From: Candidatus Omnitrophota bacterium
GTDB taxonomy: Bacteria > Omnitrophota > Gorgyraeia > Tantalellales > Tantalellaceae
NCBI GenBank assembly: GCA_028715965.1
Contig: JAQUQS010000003.1
Coordinates: 78,494 to 142,493, forward strand
DNA: 64,000 bases
Direction of reading: 5' to 3'
Positions 1,341 to 63,388 of this stretch are shown in pieces. Position 1 is the stretch's first letter. Every line of letters begins with the position of its first letter. The notes beneath the pieces are model-generated. The model was given only the letters and a program-made list of their open reading frames with translations. It had not been told where the DNA came from and ran no database searches. A program made the position numbers and the translations under genes.

Positions 1341-1368
1341 CCCTGTATATCCTTTCTTCGGGCCGCGT

Positions 1369-1788: not shown

Positions 1789-1940
1789 AACACCTCCGTT
1801 GGCACTTTTTTTAAAAAAGTAACACGAATCCCACGGCCTGTCAAGATTTGATCCTTTCGGGCGTGTTACGCATGACATGTTCCCGCATATCAATATGAAA
1901 GCGTTTTGCCTATTGACCGGTTTTATGGGATAATTGACCT

Positions 1941-3875: not shown

Positions 3876-3911
3876 CCCGATGGGACCGGATCATGCCGGC
3901 GCATACTTTTA

Positions 3912-4514: not shown

Positions 4515-4554
4515 CCCCCACCACCGCCTGTAAGACCTTGTGCTACACGCCGCT

Positions 4555-4827
4555 TTATATCTTTCCTGCCACCATGAGAACGCCCATGATAATGAATATA
4601 GCGCCCGCCGCGTATTTGACGATCTCCGGCCTCATATATTTCGATAGTATGGCCCCTAAGACCACCGACACCGCCGTGATGATAATATACGCCGCGACCG
4701 ACCCCATCCATACCGTCAGCGGCCTGCCGCTCTTTGACGCCATAACTATACCCACTAATTGCGTCTTGTCCGCGAGCTCGGCAAAGAACACCGCGGAGAA
4801 CGCCGTAAAGAACAGTTTCATGTCCAT
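4555..4827 (-). CDS. UPF0016 (GDT1/TMEM165) family membrane protein, single-repeat half-size form
   Basis: ELADKTQ motif (E-x-G-D-K-T type) in the first TM helix; 90 aa, three predicted TM segments. Confidence 0.65.
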   Translation of the reverse strand: MDMKLFFTAFSAVFFAELADKTQLVGIVMASKSGRPLTVWMGSVAAYIIITAVSVVLGAILSKYMRPEIVKYAAGAIFIIMGVLMVAGKI

Positions 4828-4885
4828 GTTTTCCTTTCCGTCGAATATTACTATGACCCACGAGTGTCCTCTCTCGACACATCCC

Positions 4886-6178
4886 CTAGAACTTAGTTCT
4901 ATATTTTACCATCACCTCATCTTCATCCGGGGCCTTCCCGGCGCCCTGGCCGGGGTCTGCCGGATCTATCTTTTTTACCCCTTCAATGCTGAGGTTTTCC
5001 TGCAATTTATATTCGGCGCCTACGGCATACCTGTCCCCTGCCGGGATCCCCGCCTTTTCCCGCTTCTCATACCCGGTTATCAACGCCGTCTTGTCTGTCA
5101 TTTTTTTCTTCACGCTAAGGCCACTGGTATTCTCGTCAAATTTTATATCCACCCTGGTGATCCCCATCTCCTCCAGGAAACCATCTCCGGAAGGGTCCAC
5201 GAACAGGTATTCGACAAGGTCCTTCGCGACATCCGGACCCATCTTTTTATTCGCGACAGAGCCTTCCAGGCTATCCCATCTTCTGCCGGTCGCCAGCATC
5301 AATAGTATCCGCTCCTCTTCCATTCGCGGAGTAGATGCCAGCTTGACCTCAGGCGCGCTGACGCTACCGGCGATACCTATATCTATCTTAACATCTTCCA
5401 CCTCGGCCGACGCGCTTATGTCGAGCCCCGTCAGTTCAGGCGCACCATAAAAACGTAAAATGCTCCTACGCAGCTTAAGAATGGTCCTGGGACTGACCAC
5501 TTCGCCGTTCTCGAACAAGGCGCTGCCTTTAAGTTTTACGGGGTCCGTCCCGGCCTCTATGGCCATATCGATCGTTATATCACAACCCCTGACAATGATC
5601 CCGTTACGCAACAGGTTCTTCAGCTTGAGCTTACCTTTTATTTCCGGGGTCTCCGGAGCTCCTTTCACCTTAATGTCTATATCCCTCATGTCGGCATTTA
5701 TCTTCGATAGCCATTTCAGGTCCTTTACCCCGCTCGTCGTGGTTATGTTCAGGGCGTTACAATACACGTCAATGTCCAGCTCGCCCGTGGTGATCTTGCC
5801 AAAGAACGTTACCGGATCGGACCTCGGTATGGACACCTTGCCTTTATTCACCATGCAGCTTAACCATTCTTCCTTCCCGGGACTAAAGGATATCAGCGCG
5901 GAACCGATATTGACCTCAGAGCCTTCGGGCAGTAATTTTATGTTCCCGACATGTATATCCTTTACCGTAATACCTTCGGCCAGGCTACCCGTAACTTCAC
6001 CATACGATACCCCCATCATCATATCATCGTATGTGGCAACTGTGTATCCGAGCACTTTCTCGGCGCCTTTTTGCGTGAATATGACATGATACAGAACGGC
6101 GGCACCGGCAACGCAGCCCGCTATCACCAGTCCGCAAAGGACCGCCCAGAACCTTGTACTCCCAGTAAAAGTATGCAT
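4886..6178 (-). CDS. Membrane-anchored hypothetical protein, possibly TamB/DUF490-like
   Basis: N-terminal TM helix, beta-rich repetitive body, C-terminal ...DRYAVGAEYKLQENLSIEGV reminiscent of TamB C-termini. Weak. Confidence 0.35.
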   Translation of the reverse strand: MHTFTGSTRFWAVLCGLVIAGCVAGAAVLYHVIFTQKGAEKVLGYTVATYDDMMMGVSYGEVTGSLAEGITVKDIHVGNIKLLPEGSEVNIGSALISFSPGKEEWLSCMVNKGKVSIPRSDPVTFFGKITTGELDIDVYCNALNITTTSGVKDLKWLSKINADMRDIDIKVKGAPETPEIKGKLKLKNLLRNGIIVRGCDITIDMAIEAGTDPVKLKGSALFENGEVVSPRTILKLRRSILRFYGAPELTGLDISASAEVEDVKIDIGIAGSVSAPEVKLASTPRMEEERILLMLATGRRWDSLEGSVANKKMGPDVAKDLVEYLFVDPSGDGFLEEMGITRVDIKFDENTSGLSVKKKMTDKTALITGYEKREKAGIPAGDRYAVGAEYKLQENLSIEGVKKIDPADPGQGAGKAPDEDEVMVKYRTKF

Positions 6179-7025: not shown

Positions 7026-8292
7026 CCCGTTCTCCCCTAGATCTTTTAGACGCGCTTTCCCCAGCCAGGTACCCGGTCGAGAACGCCGCCTGTAGATTGA
7101 ACCCTCCCGTATCCCCATCTATATCCATGACTTCGCCAGCGAAATACAGGCCTTTTACCCTTCTCGATCCCATCGTCCTCGGATCTATGTCCTTGAGGGA
7201 TACACCACCTCTAGTGACCATCGCCTCCTTGACCGGGGCCGTCCCCGTTATCCGTACACGCATACTCTTTATGTTCCTGATAAGTCCCGCTCTCTCTTCC
7301 TTCGTCATTTGCGCCGACCGTCTGTCGGCATCAATGCGCGCTTTATCCATGATATACAAGACAAGCCTTTCAGGATACCACGTCCTTAAAAGGTTCTTGA
7401 CGCTTCGGGCCCCTGACCCTTTTATCCCCATCATGATCCTGTCTTCTATCTGTTTACCGTTCAGCGCGGGTTCCAGATCCATCTCGAGAATAAGTTCACC
7501 CTTTTTCTCGACGGTTTCCGATATCTGTCCACTCAATGCCAGGATAAGAGGGCCCGAGAGCCCGCTACGCGTGAACATCACATCCCCCGTCCCCGGAAGT
7601 TTATACTTTGAGAACGATATGGGGCCTTTCACGCGTATGCCGTATAGACTGATCCCCTCAAGCCCGGCGATGCCGGTCTCTCCCGATATGACCGGGACAA
7701 GCCCCGGTCGTGGAGTAACGATCCCATGTCCACTTTTCCCGGCGATCCGTAGCCCGTCCCCGGTAGAACCTGTTCCTGGATACGATACGCCGCCTGTCGC
7801 GACCACCACCGCGCCACACCCGAGGATCCTGTCCCCGGCAAAAGTAACGGCGTTAACGGCGCCGTCCCTCAGCTTTATCCCGTCAACCCGGGAAGAGAAC
7901 CTGCATTCGACCCCCGCGCCCTCTACCGCCCGCGTAAGCGCCGACAACACATCCCCGGCCTTCTTCCCGAGCGGGAATATCCTGCCGTTCTCCTCCTCGA
8001 CTGACCCTATCCCATTCTCCTCGAGGAACCCGACAAGCTCTTCCCTGAAGAACACCTTGAAGGCATCCCTGAGGAAATCCCCATTGGGGCCGTATCTCCC
8101 CAGAAAATCCTCTTTTTTGGCGGAATTGGTGTAGTTACACCTGCCGTTACCGGTAAGGATAAGTTTTCTTCCGGGAAGGGCGTTCTTTTCCACCAGCAAA
8201 GTACGCAGGCCGCTCTTACCGGAACGAATAGCCGCCATCATGCCCGCGGGCCCCGCGCCTATAACGACCACATCATATTTTTCAATATTCAT
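7018..8292 (-). CDS. HI0933-family NAD(P)/FAD-dependent oxidoreductase (YhiN / aminoacetone-oxidase-like flavoprotein)
   Basis: N-terminal VVVIGAGPAGMMAA Rossmann motif, TGNGRCNYTN, C-terminal GEVMDIDGDTGGFNLQAAFSTG typical of the family. Confidence 0.8.
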   Translation of the reverse strand: MNIEKYDVVVIGAGPAGMMAAIRSGKSGLRTLLVEKNALPGRKLILTGNGRCNYTNSAKKEDFLGRYGPNGDFLRDAFKVFFREELVGFLEENGIGSVEEENGRIFPLGKKAGDVLSALTRAVEGAGVECRFSSRVDGIKLRDGAVNAVTFAGDRILGCGAVVVATGGVSYPGTGSTGDGLRIAGKSGHGIVTPRPGLVPVISGETGIAGLEGISLYGIRVKGPISFSKYKLPGTGDVMFTRSGLSGPLILALSGQISETVEKKGELILEMDLEPALNGKQIEDRIMMGIKGSGARSVKNLLRTWYPERLVLYIMDKARIDADRRSAQMTKEERAGLIRNIKSMRVRITGTAPVKEAMVTRGGVSLKDIDPRTMGSRRVKGLYFAGEVMDIDGDTGGFNLQAAFSTGYLAGESASKRSRGERDV

Positions 8293-26935: not shown

Positions 26936-27032
26936 TATCTAGGCAATTCGGCTTTCTGGAATAAACATATCACGTTTATCTAGACCCCAAATTTTGCGCC
27001 CCCATGTCACCACGAGTTTGCCTTTATCTAGA
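26936..27032. promoter_or_regulatory. Cluster of three TATCTAG(A) palindromic sites in a divergent promoter region
   Basis: GCCTATCTAGGC (26934-26945) nested in a longer inverted repeat AAAGCCG...CGGCTTT; TTTATCTAGA at 26975-26984 and at 27023-27032. Confidence 0.35.
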
Positions 27033-35619: not shown

Positions 35620-36756
35620 TCAGAAGACTACATATGACATCGCCTTTTTAAGGATCCTTGTCTGCCTGCCCAGGTCCTCGATCGAGCGTATCTTAAGCCC
35701 ACACTTACGCGCCTCCCGTATCTTCTCGACCGTTACCTCCCCAAATCCCGGCACGCGAAGAAGCCTGGACACCTCGTCCCGGTTAACATCCACGGGGAAG
35801 AACTCGGGATGCGCTTTAGCCCAGGCCTCCTTGGGATCGCACTCGAGAGAGAGCTTCCCCCCGGATCCGAACGGTATTTCGTCGGCGGTAAAACCGTATT
35901 TGCGCATAAGCCAGTCAACCTGGTAAAGCCTGTGCTCCCGCGTCAACAGATCGGCGTTGCTTCCGCCCGACACCTCTCCCGGAAGGTCCGACGCGCCCGC
36001 TCCGCGCTGGTACGCGCTAAAATACACTCGACAAAGACCCAGGTTCCTGTAAAGCCCCCATGACGCCTTGACTATTTCCTCGTCCGTATCGGAAGCCGCG
36101 CCGACAACGAATTGTGTCGTCTGTTTTACCCGCGAGAACTCTCCTCCTCTGGCTGTAAGACGGCTAATAAGCTTCAAGGGACGCACTATATCATTCTTAA
36201 AATCCTTTGTCGTACTGAGTTCCCGGAACCTGGCCGCCGTAGCGGTCTCAACATTTATCGACACCGCCGTAGCGAGGGACAGGCTCCGGCGCACAGCCGC
36301 GTCTGACGCCCCGGGTATGATCTTCAGGTGTATATATCCCCTGAATCCACTACGTCGCAGGGCCCCGGCGGTCCTGTTGATGCCATCCATCACAGCGTCG
36401 GGCTTTCCTCCTACACCGCTTGACAGGAAAAGTCCGCTCACCTTGCGCGCCCTGTAATATGAAAGGAACGTCCGGGCCAGTTCTTCCGGAACGAGGCCGC
36501 ACCTGGGGACATCTCTACCCGCCCTTAGAGGACAGTACTTGCAATTATTAACGCATTCGTTGGAAAGGAGCGTTTTGAACAAAAATGTCCGTCGCCCGTC
36601 GGGGAACGTGACCGGATATATCCACTTATCGGTCTCTGAACGTTTACGATGTTCGTCCTGTCGCGTAGCGCACGCGCAAGCCAGGTCATATCGCGAATCC
36701 CTTGAAAGGACCCTGAGCTTCTCATTCGTATCCATCGTTTTCTTTATCATCACCAT
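35620..36756 (-). CDS. Radical SAM protein with C-terminal helix-hairpin-helix (putative DNA modification/repair radical SAM family)
   Basis: CVNNCKYC (CxxxCxxC) cluster motif; C-terminal LLRVPGFGEVTVEKIREAR HhH-like segment. Confidence 0.6.
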   Translation of the reverse strand: MVMIKKTMDTNEKLRVLSRDSRYDLACACATRQDEHRKRSETDKWIYPVTFPDGRRTFLFKTLLSNECVNNCKYCPLRAGRDVPRCGLVPEELARTFLSYYRARKVSGLFLSSGVGGKPDAVMDGINRTAGALRRSGFRGYIHLKIIPGASDAAVRRSLSLATAVSINVETATAARFRELSTTKDFKNDIVRPLKLISRLTARGGEFSRVKQTTQFVVGAASDTDEEIVKASWGLYRNLGLCRVYFSAYQRGAGASDLPGEVSGGSNADLLTREHRLYQVDWLMRKYGFTADEIPFGSGGKLSLECDPKEAWAKAHPEFFPVDVNRDEVSRLLRVPGFGEVTVEKIREARKCGLKIRSIEDLGRQTRILKKAMSYVVF

Positions 36757-36963: not shown

Positions 36964-37058
36964 GTATGATGAGCGATGTGGCGTGAGCGAGTTCCGCAGA
37001 CCAAGGGCTGACCGAAAGTCGAGGACTGTTTGAGCTGTAGCCACATCCCGGATCATAC
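36964..37058. repeat. Conserved-core hairpin element, copy A
   Basis: GTATGAT..GATGTGGC stem closing core AGTTCCGCAG...CGAGGACTGTTTGAG..GTAG then GCCACATC..ATCATAC. The same core recurs at 54085-54160 with a different closing stem. Confidence 0.6.
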
Positions 37059-37060
37059 TT

Positions 37061-37079
37061 CTTATCTATAATAGATAAG
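37061..37079. promoter_or_regulatory. Perfect 19-bp palindrome CTTATCTATAATAGATAAG
   Basis: 9-bp arms around a central A, immediately 3' of hairpin A; candidate protein-binding site. Confidence 0.3.
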
Positions 37080-37118
37080 ATCTTTTACAGGTTTAGCTGG
37101 GGCTGAACCTGCCCTCTT

Positions 37119-37170
37119 AAAACAAAAAACCTTCGGCGGATCGCTAACCCGCCGAAGGTTTTACTTTTTT
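37119..37170. terminator. Bidirectional rho-independent terminator
   Basis: AAAACAAAAAA, then CCTTCGGCGG-atcgctaac-CCGCCGAAGG, then TTTTACTTTTTT: a perfect 10-bp stem with an A-tract 5' and a T-tract 3'. Confidence 0.65.
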
Positions 37171-37272: not shown

Positions 37273-37776
37273 TTACTTTACGGAAACTATCTTTACCTCG
37301 AACAAGAGGTCTTTACCCGCCAACGGATGGTTAAAATCTATGACCACGACATCATCCCTGACCTCCGATATCCTTACGGGCACCACCCCGCCATCCTGCT
37401 GCTCGGCCTGGAGCATTATACCGGCCGCGGGTTCCATGCCCTCGGGAAGCCTCGAACGCGGTATTTCCCGGAAAGCCTCGCCCCTGATCTCCCCATACGC
37501 TTCCGCCGAAGGGACCGTAATCTTTCTCTCTTCGCCCGTCCTCATACCTTCCATCCTTTTGGTAAGCCCCGGGATAAGCCCGCTTTCCCCCTGAACATAC
37601 TCAAGCGGCTCCTTGCCCCTGGAAGTATCGACCACCTCTCCATCAACAGTCAAGGTATAATCGAACGTTACCGTTCTCCCTTTTTCCACCGTCATATCTC
37701 CCCCTTCCGCGTTGGCGCATCCATAGATGCTGCTTATAGTGATAACTACCGATAGCAGGCGTATCAAGCGCCCCAT
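37273..37776 (-). CDS. FKBP-type peptidyl-prolyl cis-trans isomerase, secreted or lipoprotein
   Basis: VTFDYTLTVDGEVVDTS...LIPGLTKRMEGMRTGEERKITVP FKBP core; N-terminal signal peptide with a Cys (SSIYGCANA). Confidence 0.8.
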   Translation of the reverse strand: MGRLIRLLSVVITISSIYGCANAEGGDMTVEKGRTVTFDYTLTVDGEVVDTSRGKEPLEYVQGESGLIPGLTKRMEGMRTGEERKITVPSAEAYGEIRGEAFREIPRSRLPEGMEPAAGIMLQAEQQDGGVVPVRISEVRDDVVVIDFNHPLAGKDLLFEVKIVSVK

Positions 37777-37950
37777 ACATATCCTCCACTCATCGACAAA
37801 AAAAAAGACCGCAAGTCCAGATGTCTCGAACCTGCGGTCCTGTGTATCCAAGCTTTCCTGCCGGCGCCCGCTAACACCGCGCCACGTCCTTTATTCCATG
37901 CTACACCCGGCCGTAACGATTGTCAAACGTTTTGCGGCCGCGTACCGGTA

Positions 37951-54084: not shown

Positions 54085-54160
54085 CATGTCAAATGTGTCG
54101 TGGCCAAGTTCCGCAGCCCAAAAGGCGAGGACTGTTTGAGGCGTAGATACATTTGACATG
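54085..54160. repeat. Conserved-core hairpin element, copy B
   Basis: Perfect 12-bp closing stem CATGTCAAATGT/ACATTTGACATG around core ...AGTTCCGCAG..CGAGGACTGTTTGAG..GTAG. Confidence 0.6.
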
Positions 54161-54162
54161 CA

Positions 54163-54209
54163 GAACATGAGCTCCTTTATTTCTTCCCGACTATTTTATC
54201 AAAAGCATC
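54163..54209. repeat. 47-bp direct repeat copy 2 (authentic 3' end of GYD gene)
   Basis: Covers the stop codon and last nine codons (..DAFDKIVGKK*) of the 54177..54461 gene. Confidence 0.7.
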
Positions 54210-54461
54210 TACTTTTACGGCAGGCGAGGTAGTGAACGCGATCCCGGTCATCTTTGAAAGTTCGATCGACGCCTTCATCGCCTTGGCGACATCCGCGAAA
54301 TCGGCCATTATCGCGATATCATGCGCCCCCATGAGCGCGTAGATAGATTCGACCTTGCCGCCGGCTTTCTTAATGGCATTTACGCCCTTTTTGGTACGTG
54401 CCGAGCTGATGCCTTTCATGGCATCTATCGAGTATTTCCCCATCATCAAGAATTTGGCCAT
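54177..54461 (-). CDS. GYD-domain protein
   Basis: MAKFLMMGKYSIDAMKGIS... matches the GYD family (PF08734); 94 aa. Confidence 0.7.
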   Translation of the reverse strand: MAKFLMMGKYSIDAMKGISSARTKKGVNAIKKAGGKVESIYALMGAHDIAIMADFADVAKAMKASIELSKMTGIAFTTSPAVKVDAFDKIVGKK

Positions 54462-54592: not shown

Positions 54593-57500
54593 TCATTTCC
54601 CTATATCGACCTTCACCTCATGCTCGCGGTGGTCATCTATAAGATGTACACGCGCGTCCCCCGACGCGTCACCGTCCACGGTAAGGCCGCTCACAGCGCC
54701 ACCCGGTCCTACCCTCTTGAAATGTATATGGTAGACGGTCTCCCTGAACCTGTAATGCACCGTATATCCCGCCCATTCATCGGGAACACACGGTTTAAAC
54801 GCGAGCGTACAGTCCTCAAGCGTTATCCCCAGGATATGTTCGACCACGAGGCGGTACATCCATCCCGCGGAACCGGTGTACCATGTCCATCCGCCTCTTC
54901 CCGCATGGGGGCTCGACGCGTAGACATCCGCGGCGACTACATACGGCTCAACCTTGTAGACAGACATCTTTTTCGCGTCAGATCCGTGATTCACCGGATT
55001 TATCATCTGGAAAAGTTCCCAGGCCTTCTTTCGGTCTCCCAACAGGATGAACGCTATCACGACCCATACCGCCGCGTGCGTGTATTGGCCTCCATTCTCC
55101 CTTATCCCGGGCAAATATCCTTTTATATACCCCGGGTCCATATCTGAAGTATCGAATGGAGGGGCTAGAAGCTGTATAAGCCCGGCATCTTTGTGGACAA
55201 GTTTTCTATACACCTGGTCCATGGCTGTTTCCGCCAGTTTTTTGTCCCCGGCCGCGGATATCACCGACCAGCTCTGGGCTATCGAATCTATACTGCATTC
55301 CTCGTTCTTATGCGAACCGAGCGTTTTACCGTCATCAAAGAAAGCGCGCAGATACCATTTCCCGTCCCAGGCCTTCTCGTCTATGCTTTTCGCGATCCGA
55401 TCCGATTCATGCCGGCATTTCTCCTCAAAGTGGATATCCCCGCGCATACGCGCTATAGCACCGAACTCCTTCACCACATAGAAAAGGAAGAACGCCAACC
55501 AGACACTTTCCCCTTTTCCTTCCGCGCCTACGAGATTCATTCCGTCGTTCCAGTCACCGGCGCCCATAAGCGGCAGGCCGTGTTCCCCATACCTGAAAGC
55601 CCTACTCAGCGCGCGGACACAATGCTCATATACCGTAGCCTTCTCCTCGGTCCTGGCCGGCCTGTCGTAGTACGCGTCCGTATCCGGATCAAGAGGCCTT
55701 CCCTCAAGGAAACTCGTTCTTTCCTCGAGCACGCCGGTATCCCCGGTCGCCTTTACGTACCTGGCTACCGCCAGGGGTAACCATAAAAGATCATCGGAGA
55801 AATGCGTCCTAACGCCGGCGCCATAAGGTTCGTGCCACCAGTGCTGGACGTCACCTTCCCTGAACTGTCTCCCCGACGCCCTTACGATCTGCTCCCTCAG
55901 CATATAAGGAGCGGAATGAACAAGCGCCATAGCGTCCTGCAACTGGTCCCTGAACCCGAAAGCCCCTCCCGACTGATAGTACCCCGATCTTGCCCACATG
56001 CGGCATGCTACCGTCTGGTACAATAGCCAGCTATTCGTCATAACGTTCATCGAAGCTTCGGGAGTATTTACATATACCGCTCCCAGCATATGGTTCCAAT
56101 AATTCCATACATTGTTCAGGTTCTCACGGGCGGACGCCGTTCCTTTATATCTTTTCACCAGGTCACGCGCCTCGTCCGCGTTCCTGCCCGCGCCTAATAT
56201 GAATGCCACTTCTTTTTCCTGTCCGTCGGCAAGTTCCAGCTTTGTCTGTATCGCGCCGCACGGATCGAACCCTGCCCCCAGCCTGTTGGAAAGCTTCGTC
56301 CTGTGCATAGCCGCGGGGGACCTGTAGTCACCGTTCCTGCCTATGAATTCAGCCCTGTCCCCGGTCGTGGTCTTTACGGATTCACTGACATCCAGGAACG
56401 TCGTGTATTGCCCGAAATCCGCGTTGTAGTAGTTCCTCATGAAAAGCGCGCCTGTTTTCGGATCTATCTCGGTCACGACATGCATCTGTGTCTTATCCCT
56501 TGCCTCTCCGAGCACTGGTTCGACATAGGAAGTCAGCGACAGTTTCTTTTCCCGCCCCGATACGTTCTTTATTTTGAGAAAGGAATATTTAACGGCGGCG
56601 TCAATGGCCACATACACCCACAGCTCCGTCTCAATACCATCTTCCCTATGGGAGAACACCGTGTATCCGCATCCATGCCGCACGGCGTATCCGGTCTGGC
56701 CGCGCGCCGGCCCCGGCGACGGGGACCAGAAATTCCCGGCCTCTTCATCCCTTATATACATAGCTTCGCCGCTAATGTCGCTTACCGGGTCGTTGTACCA
56801 TGGCGTAAGCCTGTATTGGCTGGAATTATCGAACCAGGTATACGCTCCCCCTCTTTCCGACACCACGGTCCCGAAGAACGGGTTCGCTATAACGTTCGCC
56901 CACGGTGCCGGCGTGACCATGCCGGGCTTGAGGAATATGACATATTCCCGCCCGTCAGGGGTGAAACCTCCAAGACCGTTGAAGAACACCAGCTCTACGA
57001 ACGGGGAGAACTCTTCCCCTTCCCGTTTTGCGGGGCGCTTCCTGGTCGGGATGAGCCTCGGCACCTTGAGGTCGGAACGGCTCCTCCTGTCGATCTGTTC
57101 CGCCAGGGTTCCCATCGTGTCGGATATTATTATGCGTGCCAGCGTCTGGAACAGTATCTTATCCACTTCTGATATCTGCTCCGACTGTCTTATGAAAACA
57201 CCTCCGGGCCTGTCCAGGAAATGCGCTTCCATTCCCGCGGTCACCATGCCCATTATCTTGTTCTGCAGGTCCTGACGATAACTTGAATGGTCTTCGTTCC
57301 ATATGACAAGATCGACCTCAAGTCCCTTCATACGCCAGTATATATGTGCTTTCAGCATCTGGCGGACAAGATCTATGTTCGCCGGGTCCGATATCCTTAC
57401 AAGAACGATCGGCAGGTCACCGGATATACTGTATCCCCACAGCCCGGACTGTTCACGCCTGTTCTTCATTATCACACTTGCCCCGGCACGCCTCAGGTAA

Positions 57501-60500
57501 CTTGGGTATACGACAGAATTCGCCAACCGTCCGAAAAGTTGGGCGTCGGTCTCGTCGGCGTTAGCCTGCTGCAGAACTACCTGCGCGTGTGTCCACGCCA
57601 GGTCGAACACGCGTCCCGCAAGATGCCTATCCCTGTATTTATCCACGAACTCAAGGGCTTTTTCCCTGGTATCCGCCATGCCGGTGACAAAGTCGACCAC
57701 GACCGTCTCTTCGGGATCGATCACGACCCGGCAGCGTATTGATGTTATCGGGTCAAGTACCGGGCCTTCCGTGCCCGACAGGTCGTTAGAAGTCCTCATT
57801 GCCTCGGCATCATACAGGCTGCCGCCTCTTCCCACGAATTTTGCCCGGTCGGTCTCATACGAAGCGTTGCCTTTCTGCGGGCCATGCACCGCGGCAAGAT
57901 GGAATAGATATGGCTCGGGATCCGGCGCGGAACGTTTCCTGCGTGAACATAGTATGGCCTGTTTTTCCCTTATTATCTCTGTACTCACGAATAGCTTGCT
58001 GAAAGCGGGATGCGCGGCGTCAGCCTCGGGATAGGCCATAACGACCTCAGAATAACTCGTCAGTTCTATGACTTTTTTCTCCTTAGAATTATTGACTATG
58101 TTCATCCTGCGTATCTCTATATCGTCTTCCGGCGATACCGCCATCTGCATATGCGTTTCTATATCCCCGTCCCTGCGCCGGAATTCAGCTTTACCTCGGG
58201 AGAATATCGCTTCGTAGTGCTCCGGCATCTTCAACGCCGGTTGATATCCTACAGACCATACTTCTCCTGTATACGAGTCCTTCATGTAGCAGAAAGACCC
58301 CGCGGCGTCCCTCGTTACGTCCGGCTGCCAACGGGTCACCGCAAGTCCGTTCCACCTGGAATATCCACTGCCAGAATTCGTTATCATGACGTTATAATTC
58401 CCGTTGGAAAGAAGATGGACCTCGGGCACAGGGGTATGCGGCGTATTGAATGTCCTGAAAACAGCCTCCTGGCTGATCTGTTCCCTTAATAACATGCCCA
58501 TGGGTTCGTTAAAGTGCAGGTGGAACGGCGTAGCTTTCGGCACGCGTTCATGCAAAAGCACTTCCGCTGCCTGGAATGCCGGGTCCGAAAGGAACCTTCT
58601 CTGCATCCTCTTATCGAGGAGAACGTACGCCATTGAAAGAAAGCTCATCCCCTGATGATGCGCCATGAAGGATCTAACTATCATGGGACCTTGATACCCA
58701 TGCGGCAGTCGTGACGTAGTATAATCCACCGCTTCATAAAAACCGTATTTACCCATTACACCTTCGTTCCGGAGCCGCATCAGGTTTGAGCACGCGCTGT
58801 CGGGCTTGACCATAAGAGCCAGCATGGACGCGTAAGGCGCTATTACGAGATCATCCCCGAGCCCTCTTTTGAATCCCAGGTCAGGCACACCGAAGGCCCT
58901 GTACTGGTAGCTCATGTGCGCGTCCGTAGCGTTATATCCGGATTCGGATATCCCCCACGGCACGCCCTTACGTGAAGTGTACCGGATCTGTTTATTGACC
59001 ACCGTCCTGTAGGTGTGATCCAATATGGTATCCGCGTATGTGGGCATAAAAAGAAGCGGCATCAGGTATTCGAACATGGACCCGCTCCAGGAAAGCAGTA
59101 CCGGTCCTATCCCGCGTATAGTGGTGAAAAGCCTTCCCAGCGTGAACCAGTGTTCCTGGGGGATACGTCCAAGCGCGATACCCACAAAACTCGCCAGACG
59201 CGCCTCGGACGCGAGAAGGTCATAACAACTCGGGTCACGGCGGCGTTCCGTAACATTGTACCCCACGGATAAGAGCTTATAGGCGCCATCATAAAGGAAC
59301 TCGAACTCCATGTCGGCCAGTTCACCACATTCAAGCGAAAGCCTTTCGAGTTCCGTTATCCTTTCACTGGCACGAGTGGCACCTTCCTCCACGGCGGACA
59401 AAAATCCGTCGATCCACTCACATATGATCTCTTTTTTCTTACCGGTCCCTATATTAGCGCGTTCCACGACCTGTCTTATGCCCTTAACATCTATTCTTGC
59501 CAGGTCCGTCAGGCTCCGCATCCCATCTAATTTCTCCATCTCACTGCGAATGTTCCGCACAAGCTCGTTCTCATCATATACCCCCCCGGCATATATCTCC
59601 ACAGGCACTTCCAGCTTAAGCCATGGCATCAGACCATCTATTTCCCTTATCCAGTCAAAACATTGTCTTTCAAGCGCGCCGGCCCACCATTTCACCTCGC
59701 CGCTCTTATCCGCCCACGTCGCTTCGGATATTTCGGAGGCCAACTTTCCGATATCCTCCAACGCGCTCCTTATATCCTTGAACGTATCAGCTGGCGCGGA
59801 GCAGGTTTCTTTTATGCCCCTAAGCTTGTCGCCGAGTTCCACGGGAAGGCCCTCCACGGCCTTCATCTCGGACGCGAGCACGAAAGCCGTATTTTCGACG
59901 CCCTTCAATATCCCGTCCGGGACAGCCTCCGCCGTCTGGAGCCCCAAAAGGCCCTGTTTAAGGACAAGTAACGCGCCGGCAAGGTTCCCGCTGTCGACCG
60001 ATGATATATACAAAGGCTGCAATGTCCTCAGCGTCTGCGTATCATACCAGTTGTAAAAATTGCCCCTGAAACGCTCGAGTTTTTTCATTGTCTCCAGAGT
60101 GTTCTCGGTCCTCTCAAGGAAACCCGCGCAAGAAATATACCGGAAGTCATACGCGGATAGGTTTGAAAGAAGGGCCATGCCCATATTGGTCGGGGAAGTC
60201 CTGCGCGCCGTGATCTTGAGCGGCTCTTCCTGATGGTTATCCGCCGGCAGCCAATTGCTCTCGGCGTTGACGAACTGTTCAAAATACCGCCAGGTCCTGC
60301 GCGCCGCTTCCCGCAGGAAAGCGTCCTGTGACGGTCTCAGCTTTATCTTGCGCGGCGGCCTTATCTGACTTAACCACCAGGCTATCGCCGGAGATATCAT
60401 CCATAACACCAATAGGGGCGCGGCCACCACAAGTATAGCGGGTCTCAGGTGGACGAGACAGGTCGCGGCCACCACCGCGAGGACCGGCCCGGTCCACATC

Positions 60501-63388
60501 GAAGCGTAAAACCCGGCGAACCTTGTATGCGCGAGCCGCTTCATGTCGCTAGAGGTCACCCATTCCAGTGTTTTTCGGCGAGTCACGAACATGCGTATAA
60601 GGGCGCGCGCGATAGCGTCCACGTTCAGGAACGCCTCAAAAGGCAAAGTGGTGATCATGAATACCGCCTGCACGAGCCTTTTTACGGCACTGTGTACCTG
60701 GCTTTTTAAATGAGCTCCCAGAGGGGCTTTCGGCGGTTTTTTAAAAAGTTCCACGGCCGACACTGCCAGCTGCGGCACAAGTATCATAGCGAAAACGAAC
60801 ATGGTCCAGAACACGGCGTTATCCTGGATGACCCATCCTATAAAAAGAAGCAGCGTCATGGCGACGGGGACCAGCGAACGCCAGAGGTTATCGAATATTT
60901 TCCATTTTGAAAGGAGTGATATGGGGTTCCTTATCCAGCTTCCGCCCATACAAGGCGCCATGGGCAAAAGCCAGTAGATTATCTGCCAGTCCCCGCGTAC
61001 CCACCGGTGTTTTCTATTCGCGTCCACGATGTAACTGGAAGGATATTCTTCAAAGAACTGTATATCACTCACAAGTCCCGACCTCGCGTAACACCCCTCC
61101 AGGAGATCGTGGCTAAGTATGAGATCATCGGGGAACCGTCCATCCATCGTTCTTGTGAACATATCCACGTCATACAGGCCCTTGCCGATAAAAGACCCCT
61201 CGCCGAAAACATCCTGGTAGACGTCCGATACGGCCTGGGTATAGGGATCTATACCGGGGTCCCCGCTGAAAAGCCGGGCGAACCACGAGCGGCGGGCTCC
61301 GGCCATGCTCACTCCCACCCTGGGCTGTAATATCCCGTATCCCTCGGAAACTATACCCCGTTTCTCGTCATAGACCGGCCTGTTGAGCGGATGCGCTATT
61401 GTAGCTACAAGTTCCCGTGCCGCCTCCAGCGGCATATGTGTATCCGTGTCGAGAGTTATAACATATTTAACGTCCTGCAGGGGAGAGATATCTCCCACTA
61501 CCAGCATGCCTTCGTTCGCGGGCCTCTTGCCCCTGAGAAGTAAATTAAGTTCGGAAAGCTTCCCCCTCTTCCTCTCATAGGACATCCAGACGTTCTGCCG
61601 GGGGTTCCAAGTCCTGGGCCGGTGGAACAAAAAGAACCTGTCGACGCCACCGGTGGAATGGCTGCTGTTAAGTTCCATTATTCCCATAGTGATGTACTCG
61701 AGGAGCTCTCCGTCCCCGGGCATGTCCTGGGACGGCGCGTCCGGGAAATCCGTCAGGAGACCGAAGAACAGGTTATCATCCCTGTTAGCCAGGTACCGCA
61801 CCTCGAGATCCTCGATCAGGTGATCTATGCCTTGTTTACTGCGCAGCATCGTGGGAACAACAGTAAGCGTACGGGCCGAAGCGGGTATACCCCTGGTAAA
61901 ATCCATACGTGCCAGGACTCTCGGCGCCACCATCAAGGTCATAAGCCAGTTCGTTATGGATATCGCGAACCGGCTCGAACAGAGCACAAGGACCGCTCCC
62001 AGTAACCACATGCTTCGCACGCCTAAACCATGTATATATCCGAAGCTCAATCCCGTTATGACCGCGGCAGCGATGAACAAGGCTATGGTACACAGGTAGA
62101 AAAAGAGCGGGAACTTCCTGCCAAGCTTTGATACAAGTTCCCCTAACCTCAAACGCAGCCTCACCGCCCTCTGCATAAAAGGCAGCCCTTTGTCTATAAG
62201 GAAATACCCTACATGCGCGGCCCTGTCATCACTCCCTGTCTCAGAGGCCTTCTCACGAGCAAGCGTTACCGCCCGCCGCGCCACTTCTTCTTCCGAAAGC
62301 CCGGTCCTCCTGGCGAGGTTCTCTACAACATGACGATAGCGGTCACGTGTGGCGAAATCCATGGAAGCATAAAACCCGTTCGGGTCAGCCGAGAGCGTAC
62401 GTTCCACCACACTCAGCGCGGTCACGAAATCACGCCAGTCTATGGCCCCGAGCGTCCTGAGACTGTTTATGGTGTTCGATATGGACACCTGGTCCGCGGC
62501 CTGCTGTTGGCTATCAAGATGTACAAGGCGTTCTATACGTTTCCCCTGTTCCATGAGCCGCTGCTCAAGCCATGATATAGGCAACGCCAGCGCGGAGCTC
62601 TGTCCTTGGAGACGACGCGTGAACTCGGCCACGAAAGCGGGCGTGAACGGCGGGTCCGATCGCGCCATATCGGCCATCTCGAGAATAAGCGCGTTGGGCT
62701 CCTTTTCAGCCACCACTATCATCTTCTCTGCCCAGGAAGTAGCTATATCCCGTTCCCTACGGCGCGCTTCCACGCGAAGCGCCACACGCCTGAGGTTCTC
62801 TACAAGCGCGAGCCGTATCATGATAGGTACGGCCCACAGTTCACCAAGCTTGAGCGATATGACATTCTGGTATGACGCGACGAAAACGGAAAGGCTTTCC
62901 TCATCCACACGTCCGTCACCATGCGATATGAGGTTATACGCTATTTCATATACCCGGGGATACCCGGCGAACGGTCCCTTGATAAGACGCGGAAGTTCCC
63001 GGCTGTAGGTCTTTGGGAAATGCTGATGTATGGTCCTTATCTGTTCACGTATCAGGTAGAAATTATCTAGAAGCCATTCTCCCGCCGGCGATATGCTCCT
63101 GTCACCGTAAACGGCCTCCATCAAGAGCTTGTGTGTCCTGATAAGGACCTTTTCGTTCTCCGCGAGACGTTCGTGCAGCTTTACTTTGCCCCGCATGACC
63201 TTAACTTCTTTGCCCCTGTTCCTGGCCAACGCTTTGGCGTGGTATTGAAGTTGTTCCAGGCTGCAGAGTTCCGAACGGAGGGGTTCTTCTTCCCCGGCCC
63301 GCTTGACCAGGTTAGCGGTCAGCAGTATCCTGGCCTTACGGCGAAGGCTTATCATGGTCTTAAATATATATTTCCTTATCTTATCCAA
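54593..63388 (-). CDS. cgs: Cyclic beta-1,2-glucan synthase (Cgs/NdvB/ChvB type: N-terminal membrane/GT domain plus C-terminal GH94 phosphorylase-like domain), 2931 aa
   Basis: Conserved N-terminal ...SPAGEWLLDNFYLIREQIR..., TM cluster, GT region with VITLDTDTHMPLEAAREL and GKGLYDVDMFTRTMDGRFPDDLILSHDLLEGCYARSG, then long GH94-like region to the C-terminus; uninterrupted 8.8-kb ORF. Confidence 0.8.
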   Translation of the reverse strand: MDKIRKYIFKTMISLRRKARILLTANLVKRAGEEEPLRSELCSLEQLQYHAKALARNRGKEVKVMRGKVKLHERLAENEKVLIRTHKLLMEAVYGDRSISPAGEWLLDNFYLIREQIRTIHQHFPKTYSRELPRLIKGPFAGYPRVYEIAYNLISHGDGRVDEESLSVFVASYQNVISLKLGELWAVPIMIRLALVENLRRVALRVEARRRERDIATSWAEKMIVVAEKEPNALILEMADMARSDPPFTPAFVAEFTRRLQGQSSALALPISWLEQRLMEQGKRIERLVHLDSQQQAADQVSISNTINSLRTLGAIDWRDFVTALSVVERTLSADPNGFYASMDFATRDRYRHVVENLARRTGLSEEEVARRAVTLAREKASETGSDDRAAHVGYFLIDKGLPFMQRAVRLRLRLGELVSKLGRKFPLFFYLCTIALFIAAAVITGLSFGYIHGLGVRSMWLLGAVLVLCSSRFAISITNWLMTLMVAPRVLARMDFTRGIPASARTLTVVPTMLRSKQGIDHLIEDLEVRYLANRDDNLFFGLLTDFPDAPSQDMPGDGELLEYITMGIMELNSSHSTGGVDRFFLFHRPRTWNPRQNVWMSYERKRGKLSELNLLLRGKRPANEGMLVVGDISPLQDVKYVITLDTDTHMPLEAARELVATIAHPLNRPVYDEKRGIVSEGYGILQPRVGVSMAGARRSWFARLFSGDPGIDPYTQAVSDVYQDVFGEGSFIGKGLYDVDMFTRTMDGRFPDDLILSHDLLEGCYARSGLVSDIQFFEEYPSSYIVDANRKHRWVRGDWQIIYWLLPMAPCMGGSWIRNPISLLSKWKIFDNLWRSLVPVAMTLLLFIGWVIQDNAVFWTMFVFAMILVPQLAVSAVELFKKPPKAPLGAHLKSQVHSAVKRLVQAVFMITTLPFEAFLNVDAIARALIRMFVTRRKTLEWVTSSDMKRLAHTRFAGFYASMWTGPVLAVVAATCLVHLRPAILVVAAPLLVLWMISPAIAWWLSQIRPPRKIKLRPSQDAFLREAARRTWRYFEQFVNAESNWLPADNHQEEPLKITARRTSPTNMGMALLSNLSAYDFRYISCAGFLERTENTLETMKKLERFRGNFYNWYDTQTLRTLQPLYISSVDSGNLAGALLVLKQGLLGLQTAEAVPDGILKGVENTAFVLASEMKAVEGLPVELGDKLRGIKETCSAPADTFKDIRSALEDIGKLASEISEATWADKSGEVKWWAGALERQCFDWIREIDGLMPWLKLEVPVEIYAGGVYDENELVRNIRSEMEKLDGMRSLTDLARIDVKGIRQVVERANIGTGKKKEIICEWIDGFLSAVEEGATRASERITELERLSLECGELADMEFEFLYDGAYKLLSVGYNVTERRRDPSCYDLLASEARLASFVGIALGRIPQEHWFTLGRLFTTIRGIGPVLLSWSGSMFEYLMPLLFMPTYADTILDHTYRTVVNKQIRYTSRKGVPWGISESGYNATDAHMSYQYRAFGVPDLGFKRGLGDDLVIAPYASMLALMVKPDSACSNLMRLRNEGVMGKYGFYEAVDYTTSRLPHGYQGPMIVRSFMAHHQGMSFLSMAYVLLDKRMQRRFLSDPAFQAAEVLLHERVPKATPFHLHFNEPMGMLLREQISQEAVFRTFNTPHTPVPEVHLLSNGNYNVMITNSGSGYSRWNGLAVTRWQPDVTRDAAGSFCYMKDSYTGEVWSVGYQPALKMPEHYEAIFSRGKAEFRRRDGDIETHMQMAVSPEDDIEIRRMNIVNNSKEKKVIELTSYSEVVMAYPEADAAHPAFSKLFVSTEIIREKQAILCSRRKRSAPDPEPYLFHLAAVHGPQKGNASYETDRAKFVGRGGSLYDAEAMRTSNDLSGTEGPVLDPITSIRCRVVIDPEETVVVDFVTGMADTREKALEFVDKYRDRHLAGRVFDLAWTHAQVVLQQANADETDAQLFGRLANSVVYPSYLRRAGASVIMKNRREQSGLWGYSISGDLPIVLVRISDPANIDLVRQMLKAHIYWRMKGLEVDLVIWNEDHSSYRQDLQNKIMGMVTAGMEAHFLDRPGGVFIRQSEQISEVDKILFQTLARIIISDTMGTLAEQIDRRSRSDLKVPRLIPTRKRPAKREGEEFSPFVELVFFNGLGGFTPDGREYVIFLKPGMVTPAPWANVIANPFFGTVVSERGGAYTWFDNSSQYRLTPWYNDPVSDISGEAMYIRDEEAGNFWSPSPGPARGQTGYAVRHGCGYTVFSHREDGIETELWVYVAIDAAVKYSFLKIKNVSGREKKLSLTSYVEPVLGEARDKTQMHVVTEIDPKTGALFMRNYYNADFGQYTTFLDVSESVKTTTGDRAEFIGRNGDYRSPAAMHRTKLSNRLGAGFDPCGAIQTKLELADGQEKEVAFILGAGRNADEARDLVKRYKGTASARENLNNVWNYWNHMLGAVYVNTPEASMNVMTNSWLLYQTVACRMWARSGYYQSGGAFGFRDQLQDAMALVHSAPYMLREQIVRASGRQFREGDVQHWWHEPYGAGVRTHFSDDLLWLPLAVARYVKATGDTGVLEERTSFLEGRPLDPDTDAYYDRPARTEEKATVYEHCVRALSRAFRYGEHGLPLMGAGDWNDGMNLVGAEGKGESVWLAFFLFYVVKEFGAIARMRGDIHFEEKCRHESDRIAKSIDEKAWDGKWYLRAFFDDGKTLGSHKNEECSIDSIAQSWSVISAAGDKKLAETAMDQVYRKLVHKDAGLIQLLAPPFDTSDMDPGYIKGYLPGIRENGGQYTHAAVWVVIAFILLGDRKKAWELFQMINPVNHGSDAKKMSVYKVEPYVVAADVYASSPHAGRGGWTWYTGSAGWMYRLVVEHILGITLEDCTLAFKPCVPDEWAGYTVHYRFRETVYHIHFKRVGPGGAVSGLTVDGDASGDARVHLIDDHREHEVKVDIGK

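Follow-up and report, generated by a model that had tools for sequence, protein, structure and literature searches.

In a 64-kb window (the whole stretch of DNA analysed), we found that two + strand hairpins, copy A (36964-37058) and copy B (54085-54160), are homologous and belong to a very large hairpin family that is apparently undescribed. Its members carry the same core of about 30 bases on a freely varying stem in more than 10 bacterial phyla, and the copies are scattered and intergenic. The reading that we prefer, tentatively, is a REP-like, copy-spreading hairpin repeat; a putative trans-acting enzyme would recognise its apex on a folded single strand that is probably DNA.

Two window copies and their common core

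Copy A is open at its outer stem ('type P1'). The 5' strand of this stem (36964-36982) is composed of GTATGAT (36964-36970), an internal loop and GATGTGGC (36975-36982), and the 3' strand (37040-37058) is composed of GCCACATC, CCGG and ATCATAC. GTATGAT pairs with ATCATAC (37052-37058), and GATGTGGC with GCCACATC (37040-37047). The 5' half-core (36987-36999), which is invariant in 88 aligned copies, reads GC (short helix P1a), G, AGTTCC (5' strand of helix P2, with a bulged T), GCA (internal loop) and G (first base of P3). It is followed by a variable apical segment, the P3 insert, of 20 nt (37000-37019) and by the 3' half-core (37020-37035), which reads C, GA (loop), GGACT (3' strand of P2), GTTTGA (internal loop) and GC (P1a) and is invariant apart from GT[T/C][T/C/G]GA. 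In copy B, the outer stem strands CATGTCAAATGTGTC (54085-54099) and GATACATTTGACATG (54146-54160) pair with one G·T. Its 5' half-core (54103-54116) is GCC (P1a), A, AGTTCC, GCA and G, and its 3' half-core (54126-54142) is C, GA, GGACT, GTTTGA and GGC (P1a); the apical segment between them, CCCAAAAGG (54117-54125, 9 nt), has a CC/GG stem and a CAAAA loop. The blocks AGTTCCGCAG and CGAGGACTGTTTGAG are exact in both copies, which have in common GC-G-AGTTCC-GCA-G[variable mini-hairpin]C-GA-GGACT-GTTTGA-GC.

A sequence-only reading of the window had proposed two hairpins with a shared core, and both were confirmed on the + strand at the coordinates above, as were the lengths of the segment from GCAG to CGAG (20 nt in A and 9 nt in B). 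That segment, which had been said to contain small U-rich hairpins, is not U-rich, and a palindrome described after copy A as 19 bp is 21 nt long (37060-37080, 10+1+10). The two closing stems had been called different, but they are not entirely so: the inner parts are homologous (ATGTGG/CCACAT in A, ATGTGT/ATACAT in B) and differ by one double change (G-C to T-A) and one change of G-C to G·T. The short helix beside the core covaries too, being AGC/GCT in A and GCC/GGC in B. GTAG, which is present inside both window copies and had been counted as part of the core, is not conserved in the family (88 aligned copies). The antisense ORFs beginning MWLQLKQSS and MYLRLKQSS exist and are by-products of nucleotide conservation, as proposed; a protein-coding core is ruled out by the length of the inserted segment, which varies regardless of frame.

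The shared 15-mer alone is not rare in 64 kb, since at least two matches with 3 or fewer mismatches were found in 38 of 100 shuffles of 64 kb. That copies A and B are members of a real family follows from the model scores. Covariance model R1, built from 14 Ellagibacter-type copies alone, finds both copies (A at 36974-37048, 28.3 bits; B at 54090-54155, 30.9 bits), and the family profile HMM (nhmmer) gives E-values of 1.7e-10 for A and 1e-09 for B. Pattern, profile HMM and covariance model found no further copy in the window. The RNA fold z-scores are -2.4 for copy A and -3.75 for copy B.

The hairpin fold and selection on the + strand

From base to apex, the + strand forms a rod composed of a long, sequence-free outer stem, a helix of 2-3 bp, an asymmetric internal loop with G or GC in its 5' strand and GTYTGA in its 3' strand, the 5-bp helix P2 (AGT(T)CC/GGACT), in which one T is bulged, a 3x2 loop formed by GCA and GA, and an apical mini-hairpin of any length. 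Among family members the P3 insert can be as short as 3 nt or can exceed 100 nt, and a minimal copy is 61 nt long (locus L024, 1467-1527). About 26 core positions are invariant, while the outer stems turn over completely, even within one genome. The outer stem and the apical mini-hairpin both covary very strongly, 95.7% of cells being paired, compared with 69.5% in shuffled and 31-46% in slid controls. Double changes occur at 12 of 12 outer-stem pairs, and none of 500 shuffles reached the observed score, so the stem covariation suspected from the window is real. P2 is almost invariant, and its pairing thus rests on very few events.

Mismatches in the stem more than 9 nt from the core are mostly of the G·T type as read on the + strand (140, vs 46 of the A·C type; p = 3e-12), and the split persists when counted per copy (70 vs 17). 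This excess indicates that the folded + strand is the selected form. The outer stems are 15-40 bp long and perfect in 25 of 134 copies. Most apical loops are triloops, chiefly of the C(GNA)G form: C(GAA)G was counted 18 times, C(GCA)G 9 times and C(GUA)G 6 times, beside C(AAA)G with 6. Few loops are GNRA tetraloops, and none is UUCG. In its smallest form the apex reads GCGAAGC, reportedly found by Hirao and colleagues to be exceptionally stable as a DNA mini-hairpin and not exceptionally stable as RNA.

Copies, hosts and genomic surroundings

An exact 22-base bipartite pattern was found at 120 or more loci in representative genomes, often on several contigs or in several copies per genome, and a variant pattern at 120 or more loci in metagenomes; covariance model R1 gave 113 matches in 767 kb. 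The number of copies is therefore far more than two. Hosts of the pattern include Coriobacteriia, Lachnospiraceae, Omnitrophota, Hydrogenedentota, Polyangia/Myxococcota, Chloroflexia, Dormibacteria, Planctomycetia, Latescibacteria, Longimicrobiales and Bdellovibrionota, and carriers include Ellagibacter isourolithinifaciens DSM 104140, Enorma massiliensis, Collinsella tanakaei and Olsenella sp. An270. In some genomes, nearly identical copies occupy unrelated sites. The 8 copies of one Eggerthellaceae MAG agree at about 95% of positions along some 95 nt, whereas the sequence outside the element differs from copy to copy, except that three pairs have similar upstream sequence; these near-identical copies in differing flanks suggest recent proliferation. 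The subtype CACAAAGCGA...GCGACTG is common to Lachnospiraceae and Eggerthellaceae, which suggests horizontal spread. These results place the window copies in a multi-copy, widespread family.

A scan of the window with Rfam 15 at gathering thresholds gave only a c-di-GMP-I riboswitch elsewhere in the window. Scans of copies A and B to an E-value of 10 gave just sub-threshold noise from microRNA, snoRNA and lncRNA families, and on 18 further element-bearing loci no Rfam match overlapped the element. The Rfam 15 families that were not matched include hammerhead, twister, twister-sister, pistol, hatchet, HEARO, the RAGATH motifs and Collinsella-1. Viral contigs, phage records and plasmid records held no true match to the element. 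In published full texts, core 10-13-mers (both strands, RNA alphabet) matched solely unrelated primers, and keyword searches of the literature returned no description of the element. The proposal that the likeness of A and B is not due to chance, and that it marks a structured RNA or a protein-recognised hairpin, thus withstood the attempts to refute it through copy number, stem covariation and known elements, the core having no Rfam family, no phage or plasmid record and no Y1 transposase nearby.

In the window, copies A and B are both antisense to their neighbouring genes. Copy B lies 17 nt downstream of the stop of a GYD-domain gene (54177-54461, minus strand). Between copy A and the radical SAM start lie about 200 nt that contain other hairpins, and the FKBP gene has its real terminator in another hairpin (37126-37162). 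In the family, most copies are solitary and lie between housekeeping genes. The strands of the upstream and downstream genes relative to the element are (-,-) in 27 cases, (+,-) in 26, (+,+) in 16 and (-,+) in 10; orientation to the flanking genes is thus near random, with gene 3' ends and convergent intergenic regions preferred. The hint that it matters to lie upstream of two minus-strand genes finds no support; in the family, orientation and neighbours are near random. All-against-all clustering of 553 neighbouring ORFs revealed no enriched protein family within 3 kb, Pfam found housekeeping genes only beside the larger units described below, and tblastn with Y1 transposase queries (approximate IS200 and IS608 TnpA sequences) gave no significant match in about 1.5 Mb of fetched loci plus the window. 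The element has no linked protein gene.

No flanking direct repeat accompanies 119 of 132 copies, and the rest have repeats of 2-3 nt, at chance level; no conserved flanking or cleavage motif was found around the copies. Eleven head-to-head doublets (a - copy followed by a + copy) were found and none in the reverse order. Tandem arrays occur, Hydrogenedentota have a mosaic unit of about 170 nt with a second hairpin, and GTAG-headed REP-like hairpins adjoin larger versions of the element. At many metagenome loci a circularly permuted core lies inside a conserved non-coding unit of about 250 nt with several helices and good covariation. The + strand of the element is on the C-rich strand in 79 cases and on the other in 51, a weak replication-strand bias among loci that are partly non-independent.

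Repeat element, RNA motif or known system

According to the preferred reading, copies A and B would be an interspersed, strand-specifically folding hairpin repeat that behaves like REP/BIME and other non-autonomous repeats. The invariant apex of about 30 nt would serve as the recognition module of a factor that is specific for both sequence and structure and has its gene at another place in the genome. This factor most likely acts on folded single-stranded DNA; the stems would need only to pair. The element would multiply within genomes and would have moved between phyla, whereas the window copies would be passive residents of two intergenic regions, without regulating the adjacent genes. Action at the level of DNA rather than RNA, the trans-acting enzyme and the mode of copying are what we infer. 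Enzymes of such a kind act on single-stranded DNA elsewhere: HUH/Y1 enzymes use the hairpins of REP and IS200/IS605 elements, and the integron integrase uses attC in its folded form.

Abundance, host range, near-identical copies and the subtype found across Lachnospiraceae and Eggerthellaceae favour the repeat, as do the covarying fold with its strand-specific selection and the absence of target-site duplication, which is also absent for REP and IS200/IS605-type elements. The doublets, mosaic unit, tandem arrays and GTAG-headed hairpins make the organisation REP/BIME-like. GNA triloops and the minimal apex GCGAAGC argue for a DNA-type hairpin. A gene-specific role is not indicated, because no neighbour is enriched, orientation is near random and the window copies are antisense to their neighbours. 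However, the searches for a Y1 match and for a recurrent neighbour yielded no candidate enzyme, and phage and plasmid collections hold no copies. A transposase site would not usually stay identical across phyla, as this core does; such conservation is commoner among functional RNAs, and REP-RAYT pairs are as a rule confined to a lineage. The replication-strand bias would also favour a repeat, but it is weak and opposite to the bias reported for IS200/IS605 elements, and it was dropped as an argument, being too weak and too dependent on non-independent loci. Tolerance of G·T suits RNA at least equally, and circular permutation together with the covarying unit of about 250 nt is classic behaviour of an RNA motif.

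Only slightly less likely, in our view, is the main rival, in which the element acts as a structured RNA, either a protein-binding module (with a k-turn-like or tandem G·A loop) or a new small self-cleaving ribozyme. In either case it would sit on hairpins or form part of larger non-coding RNAs, and the + strand would be the one transcribed. About 26 invariant nucleotides in two internal loops and one short helix, set between freely covarying helices, speak for this reading, and so do natural circular permutations: the element opens at the outer stem in the window type and at the apical helix in the loci L229 and L070 and in the unit of about 250 nt. This unit is a covariation-supported rod in which one P2 pair switches from C-G to G-C between subfamilies (11 vs 11), in support of the pairing AGU(U)CC/GGACU. 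The alternation of U and C at GUYUGA would allow a pair with an invariant G, G·U exceeds A·C on the + strand 3:1 in both hairpin and large types, and the large units are mostly downstream of a co-directional gene (32 vs 17). The layout C-UGUYU-GA [helix] GA may be likened to the U-turn and tandem G·A of hammerheads and k-turns. A kink-turn is composed of a C-helix, a 3-nt bulge, tandem sheared G·A/A·G pairs and an NC-helix; a drawing of the 'GCGA' subtype with GGAC-UGUYU-GA-GC placed over GC-GA-GUUC shows kink-turn polarity and tandem GA but a 5-nt bulge, and in the 'GCGCA' subtype the G and the A are separated by one more C. On the other hand, no Rfam 15 family matches, even to an E-value of 10. 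Orientation to genes is near random, with antisense the commoner in co-directional intergenic regions (27 vs 16; 9 vs 3). The upstream flanks are not conserved, hence the element has no promoter of its own; a weak sigma-70-like + strand site just upstream of both window copies would suit transcription, though shuffles give as much. The loops are GNA triloops, whereas RNA usually has GNRA or UNCG tetraloops. Several features belong rather to a repeat element: outer stems of 15-40 bp that are perfect in some copies, copies that are almost identical within a genome, mosaics and doublets. The few events behind the P2 pairing also weigh against an RNA motif.

Two readings tie the hairpins to the nearby genes. 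Transcription terminators or mRNA-stabilising 3' hairpins, the core of which is a frozen accident of a repeat that spread, would explain the preference for gene 3' ends and convergent intergenic regions, the A-tracts and T-tracts that flank Hydrogenedentota and some Omnitrophota copies like bidirectional intrinsic terminators, and the start of copy B 17 nt past a stop codon. This is improbable: T-rich tails are found in 10 and A-rich leads in 9 of 134 copies, a terminator scan calls none at A or B, the FKBP gene has its separate terminator, the strand that shows the G·T excess runs antisense to the adjacent genes in the window, and a frozen accident would not hold about 26 positions invariant across phyla amid stem turnover. 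The few T-rich tails and the absence of a scan call also led us to reject an intrinsic terminator as a class. A cis-regulatory leader (riboswitch or attenuator) for the minus-strand radical SAM and autotransporter genes is hardly credible. Both copies do lie upstream of these genes, at 208 nt from the radical SAM start and 396 nt from the autotransporter start, in agreement with the range first given, but the selected + strand is antisense to both, other hairpins intervene between copy A and the radical SAM gene, and the family has no recurrent downstream gene and no fixed orientation. A sense 5' UTR of a recurrent gene class is thus contradicted by strand, neighbours and orientation.

Among known systems, REP/BIME elements and REPINs are also short, multi-copy intergenic palindromes with a strand-specific hairpin and a preference for gene 3' ends. 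They further share with the family inverted doublets, mosaics with other hairpins, tandem clusters, absence of target-site duplication and a majority of copies without a linked gene. The element fits REP/RAYT as multi-copy intergenic imperfect palindromes, but REPs have lineage-specific sequences and conserve the entire hairpin together with a 5' tetranucleotide, which in E. coli is GTAG. The element has free stems, conserves the apical bipartite core alone and keeps it identical across more than 10 phyla, and so lacks the lineage-specific hairpin with its tetranucleotide. Its doublets are not of the REPIN type, because the two copies of a doublet share no arms. REP systems go with RAYT (Y1/HUH) transposases, the gene of which is typically flanked by REPs; the Y1 queries gave no significant match to one in the fetched loci and the window. 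IS200/IS605 ends and their non-autonomous derivatives (PATEs) resemble the element in having a subterminal imperfect hairpin with a bulged T, one DNA strand of which is read by Y1, and IS200/IS605 elements also lack target-site duplication and have an orientation coupled to replication. They differ in having two different same-strand hairpins (left and right end) and specific cleavage tetranucleotides, whereas the element has one hairpin, a conserved apex, no flanking motif and a weak, opposite strand bias.

Integron attC sites are read as a folded single strand, with a helix, an unpaired centre, a helix with an extrahelical base and a variable terminal structure from a 3-nt GAA loop to more than 100 nt; the family resembles them in its strand-specific fold and its variable apex. 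In attC, however, structure and not sequence is conserved, basal RYYYAAC/GTTRRRY boxes are present, and cassette arrays accompany an integron integrase; the element has a free base, an invariant core sequence, mostly solitary copies and no integrase nearby. Membership was rejected on two grounds: GTYTGAG lies in the internal loop and not in a basal helix, where R''/R' boxes would be, the base being sequence-free, and solitary copies without a recurrent neighbour are not cassette arrays. MITEs such as Correia/CREE, ERIC, RUP and BOX are also small, scattered, non-coding intergenic repeats with possible long hairpins and near-identical copies within a genome, but they keep terminal inverted repeats, make target-site duplications and are restricted to a genus or family. 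The element has termini that vary between lineages, a conserved centre and no duplication, and was therefore not classed with them. Small self-cleaving ribozymes (hammerhead I-III, twister P1/P3/P5) share invariant junction-loop nucleotides on freely covarying stems, several copies per genome, patchy distribution among phyla and permuted forms that open at different helices, and the layout of CUG...GA and the GA loop is reminiscent of the hammerhead core. The element differs in matching no Rfam ribozyme, in being a linear rod with two internal loops and not a three-way junction or pseudoknot, and in its long, sometimes perfect stems and GNA triloops. Group I intron Q/R elements, type I-E CRISPR repeats (GAGTTCC...), the hairpin-ribozyme substrate (GUCCUGUUU), boxA, SRP domain IV and the bulge-helix-bulge splicing motif were considered as likenesses and dropped; each appears to have no more than a few bases or the general shape in common with the element, and those with Rfam models were unmatched.

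A more specific claim is that a new class of functional nucleic acid has its active centre in the core AGUUCC-GCA-G...C-GA-GGACU-GUYUGA. It would be either a small self-cleaving or self-processing ribozyme in two circular permutations or the folded single-stranded DNA site of an undescribed recombination or transposition system, with an enzyme common to more than 10 phyla. We regard this as unlikely.

In conclusion, gut Actinobacteria and Clostridia share about 30 identical bases with Omnitrophota, Myxococcota and Chloroflexi, and each collection scanned has well over 100 copies. A core kept identical across such hosts implies a strong, specific and so far unnamed reader. If the reader is an enzyme on folded single-stranded DNA, the family would be a cross-phylum mobile-repeat system with a logic opposite to that of MITEs and REPs, the centre being conserved and the ends free. 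If the element acts as RNA, it would be a candidate for a new motif or ribozyme class with natural permutations, currently absent from Rfam. The element is also an abundant source of spurious ORFs (MWLQLKQSS...), assembly breaks in MAGs and false calls of 'regulatory hairpins', and a covariance model for it would clean up annotation.

Two copies of one hairpin in the window

Direct reading of the sequence bore out both plus-strand hairpins of the sequence-only reading. Copy A (36964-37058, +) reads GTATGAT-gagc-GATGTGGC-gtga-GC-G-AGTTCC-GCA-G[20 nt]C-GA-GGACT-GTTTGA-GC-tgta-GCCACATC-ccgg-ATCATAC, and copy B (54085-54160, +) reads CATGTCAAATGTGTC-gtg-GCC-A-AGTTCC-GCA-G[9 nt]C-GA-GGACT-GTTTGA-GGC-gta-GATACATTTGACATG. 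The conserved blocks said to be shared, which form the bipartite core, are exact in both. The closing stems were described as different, which holds only in part: there is homology over the inner 6 bp (ATGTGG/CCACAT in copy A, ATGTGT/ATACAT in copy B), which differ by one double change and a single change of G-C to G·T. The 3-bp helix adjacent to the core covaries (AGC/GCT vs GCC/GGC). Wobble pairs in these copies are G·T on the plus strand; the minus strand would have A·C mismatches. The antisense ORFs over the cores are present and are artefacts of nucleotide conservation. Searched with a profile HMM and with a covariance model, the window yields exactly two copies.

Copy A is flanked by a radical SAM gene (35620-36756, minus) and an FKBP gene (37273-37851, minus), and is sited beyond the bidirectional terminator that ends the FKBP gene, a strong hairpin between A- and T-tracts (37126-37162). 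Copy B sits 17 nt past the stop codon of a GYD-domain gene (54177-54461, minus), and 396 nt separate it from the autotransporter start. Given the strands of these neighbours, both copies are antisense to all four adjoining genes. The perfect palindrome directly behind copy A exists, but is 21 nt long (37060-37080) and not 19; it is AT-rich, TCTTATCTAT-A-ATAGATAAGA, and includes TATAAT. A 2931-aa ORF (54593-63388, minus) with Glycoamylase and GH94 domains, which resembles a cyclic beta-1,2-glucan synthase or a cellobionic-acid-phosphorylase-like giant, adjoins the GYD gene and copy B. The sole match in an Rfam scan of the window was a c-di-GMP-I riboswitch aptamer at 26939-27032 (minus; RF01051; score 50.6 bits, gathering cutoff 35).

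An invariant apex on free stems

Scanning one genome per species with the pattern GTTCCGCAG-N(4-34)-GAGGACTGTTTGA gave at least 120 loci. Among the matches listed, the hosts were Coriobacteriia (Ellagibacter, Enorma, Collinsella, Olsenella, Gordonibacter and many Eggerthellaceae), Lachnospiraceae, Omnitrophota, Hydrogenedentota, Polyangia/Myxococcota, Chloroflexia, Dormibacteria, Planctomycetia, Latescibacteria, Longimicrobiales and one Pseudobdellovibrionaceae MAG; multiple contigs per genome were often matched, and in every case the core tops a stem whose sequence is lineage- or even copy-specific. The element is an abundant and real family, spread over many phyla. The same pattern found nothing in viral contigs, BLAST against phage and plasmid records gave chance matches only, a full-text literature search for the core sequence returned primers only, and the Rfam 15 models did not match copies A and B at E-values up to 10.

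Alignment of 88 copies showed the A ahead of GTTCC, GTTCCGCAG, CGAGGACTGTTTGA and the next GC to be invariant or nearly so; since the search pattern had fixed 22 positions (GTTCCGCAG and GAGGACTGTTTGA), leaving the flanking A, C and GC free, invariance of those 22 is not independent evidence. A relaxed search added 18 copies, in which the only common variation was GT[T/C][T/C/G]GA. RNAalifold paired the core as A-U, G-C, U-A, one U skipped, C-G and C-G, so that the core helix, P2, is AGU(U)CC/GGACU; the apical helix between the half-cores is closed by G-C and then a covarying pair.

A covariance model, based on 14 Ellagibacter-type copies of equal length and a structure written by hand, recovered 113 copies from 767 kb, including both window copies. 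In this alignment, which is fitted to the model and hence biased toward the structure, 95.7% of cells were in standard pairs, compared with 69.5% in the shuffled control and 31-46% when partners were slid by 1-3 columns. Covariation of the outer stem goes far beyond this fitting bias. Double changes occurred in 12/12 outer-stem pairs, and 0/500 shuffles matched any observed measure. The second pair of the apical helix was CG in 62 copies, GC in 26, AU in 4 and UA in 3, and P2 was near-invariant, with three isolated double changes. The family combines an invariant apex with stems of free sequence. Some copies have an apical helix enlarged to more than 100 nt (locus L098, 1395-1545; locus L086, about 7760-7920, minus); that of L098 contains a tandemly duplicated 58-nt unit bounded by GCCGGAGGCC.

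Genomic context and multiplication

Clustering of the 553 ORFs lying up to 3 kb from 124 copies revealed no recurrent neighbour family; gene linkage is absent, and the behaviour of the element is that of a repeat. Crude gene calls from a GC3-aided ORF caller gave (upstream, downstream) gene strands relative to the element of (-,-) 27, (+,-) 26, (+,+) 16 and (-,+) 10, that is, a preference for gene 3' ends and a mild antisense excess.

One Eggerthellaceae MAG has eight copies about 95% identical across about 95 nt, and their flanks diverge past the element except in three pairs with similar upstream sequence, which indicates recent multiplication. A subtype common to Lachnospiraceae and Eggerthellaceae indicates inter-phylum transfer. 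In a Hydrogenedentota MAG (J094; L008, L010, L049, L062, L096, L113), the element is inside a ~170-nt mosaic repeat that begins with CAGCAATTCT and has a second hairpin, CAGCGAT(TC)TCGGCGTTTCGCCGA(GA)ATCGCTG, at its end; through its A/T tracts the first hairpin of this mosaic looks like a bidirectional terminator. Head-to-head doublets, in which a plus copy follows a minus copy at a distance of 52-304 nt, occur at eleven loci (L003, L017, L019, L038, L043, L045, L051, L052, L071, L079, L093), and the reverse order was never seen. Arms of the partner copies and spacers are unrelated, and every gene context is represented. Neither a flanking motif nor a target-site duplication was found around the copies, and tblastn with approximate IS200/IS608 TnpA queries detected no Y1 transposase in any fetched sequence.

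Two loci (L019, 7190-7470; L058, 7080-7330) carry tandem partial units that repeat the upstream flank and the 5' half-core, with a 5' arm that differs, and end exactly at GTTCCGCAG; the 3' half is present in the last unit only. This sharp junction past GCAG could be a recombination or cleavage point, or an artefact of MAG assembly. At L108 (Omnitrophota, 600-4900) and L014, three successive copies each stand behind a paralogous ~190-aa gene, putatively ORF6N/KilA-N-like from its sequence, a pattern that looks like segmental tandem duplication of gene and element.

A folded strand, as DNA or RNA

Outer-stem mismatches on the plus strand at distances above 9 nt from the core were of G·T type in 140 cases and of A·C type in 46 (p = 3e-12), or 70 vs 17 when counted per copy. 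Local composition skews predict the opposite excess and transitions yield both types equally; therefore the folded plus strand is under selection. Either RNA or single-stranded DNA would account for such selection; a site in duplex DNA would not. Evidence for DNA comes from the apical loops, mostly triloops (C(GAA)G 18, C(GCA)G 9, C(AAA)G 6, C(GUA)G 6), with few GNRA tetraloops and no UUCG. At its shortest the apex is GCGAAGC; as DNA, d(GCGNAGC) forms a mini-hairpin of exceptional stability, and its RNA counterpart is not known to do so. The integron attC site of aadA7 likewise has a GAA apex, on the recombining strand.

A metagenome scan for cores with a changed middle U in AGUUCC, intended as a test of P2, gave at least 120 loci. 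Among the matches listed, most belong to a conserved ~250-nt non-coding unit (L193, e.g. 2774-3203, minus; L203, L200, L191, L233, L186, L143, L156, L196, L215, L189, L175, L241) from sediment, freshwater and soil metagenomes, located among housekeeping genes and mostly between convergent ones. Its core is circularly permuted: CGA-GGACU-GUYUGA-GC leads, a short closed hairpin is next, then GC-GA-GUUCC-GCA-G, and the 'apical' helix is a long covarying stem toward the rest of the unit. In a 22-sequence alignment, one P2 pair changes from C-G to G-C among subfamilies (11 vs 11), which supports the bulged-U register; other helices covary well, with G·U vs A·C at about 37 vs 11. A second GCA/GA loop at the far end of the long helix gives a two-fold look. 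Rfam had no match to these units. They also have three CGAG-NNN-CGCAG boxes and, after a UUUCUUUGG run, a covarying hairpin rich in UUUCUU/AAGAAA with the potential for a triplex. Simple permuted hairpins occur at L229 and L070, the latter (Myxococcota, 5330-5480) with two tandem 57-nt permuted core units within one long outer stem. GTAG-headed REP-like hairpins (e.g. GTAGGGCGCAAT...ATTGCGCCCTAC) adjoin large permuted units in the flanks of L196, L203, L175 and L215, so classical REP-type repeats are present in the same genomes too.

We tentatively prefer a REP-like repeat whose apex would be read on folded single-stranded DNA by a putative trans-acting enzyme, because of the DNA-type triloops, the indifference to transcription direction, and the intragenomic bursts, doublets and mosaics without target-site duplications. 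Its weaknesses are the missing enzyme and a core identical across phyla. A structured RNA or ribozyme is a possible though slightly less favoured explanation, to which the permutations of the core, the large unit with its covarying helices and the information-rich loops point, and against which the orientation data and loop types stand. Both rank above a pure terminator, which is unlikely and poorly supported (terminator-like tails occur in only about 7% of copies), and a leader, also poorly supported and very improbable.

Interspersed palindromic repeats and small structured motifs are an already known kind of element; this family is absent from Rfam 15, phage and plasmid collections and the searchable literature, and no described counterpart was found for its conserved centre with free ends and two permutations. 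The two window copies are most simply resident repeats, probably passive with respect to the adjoining radical SAM, FKBP, GYD and autotransporter genes.
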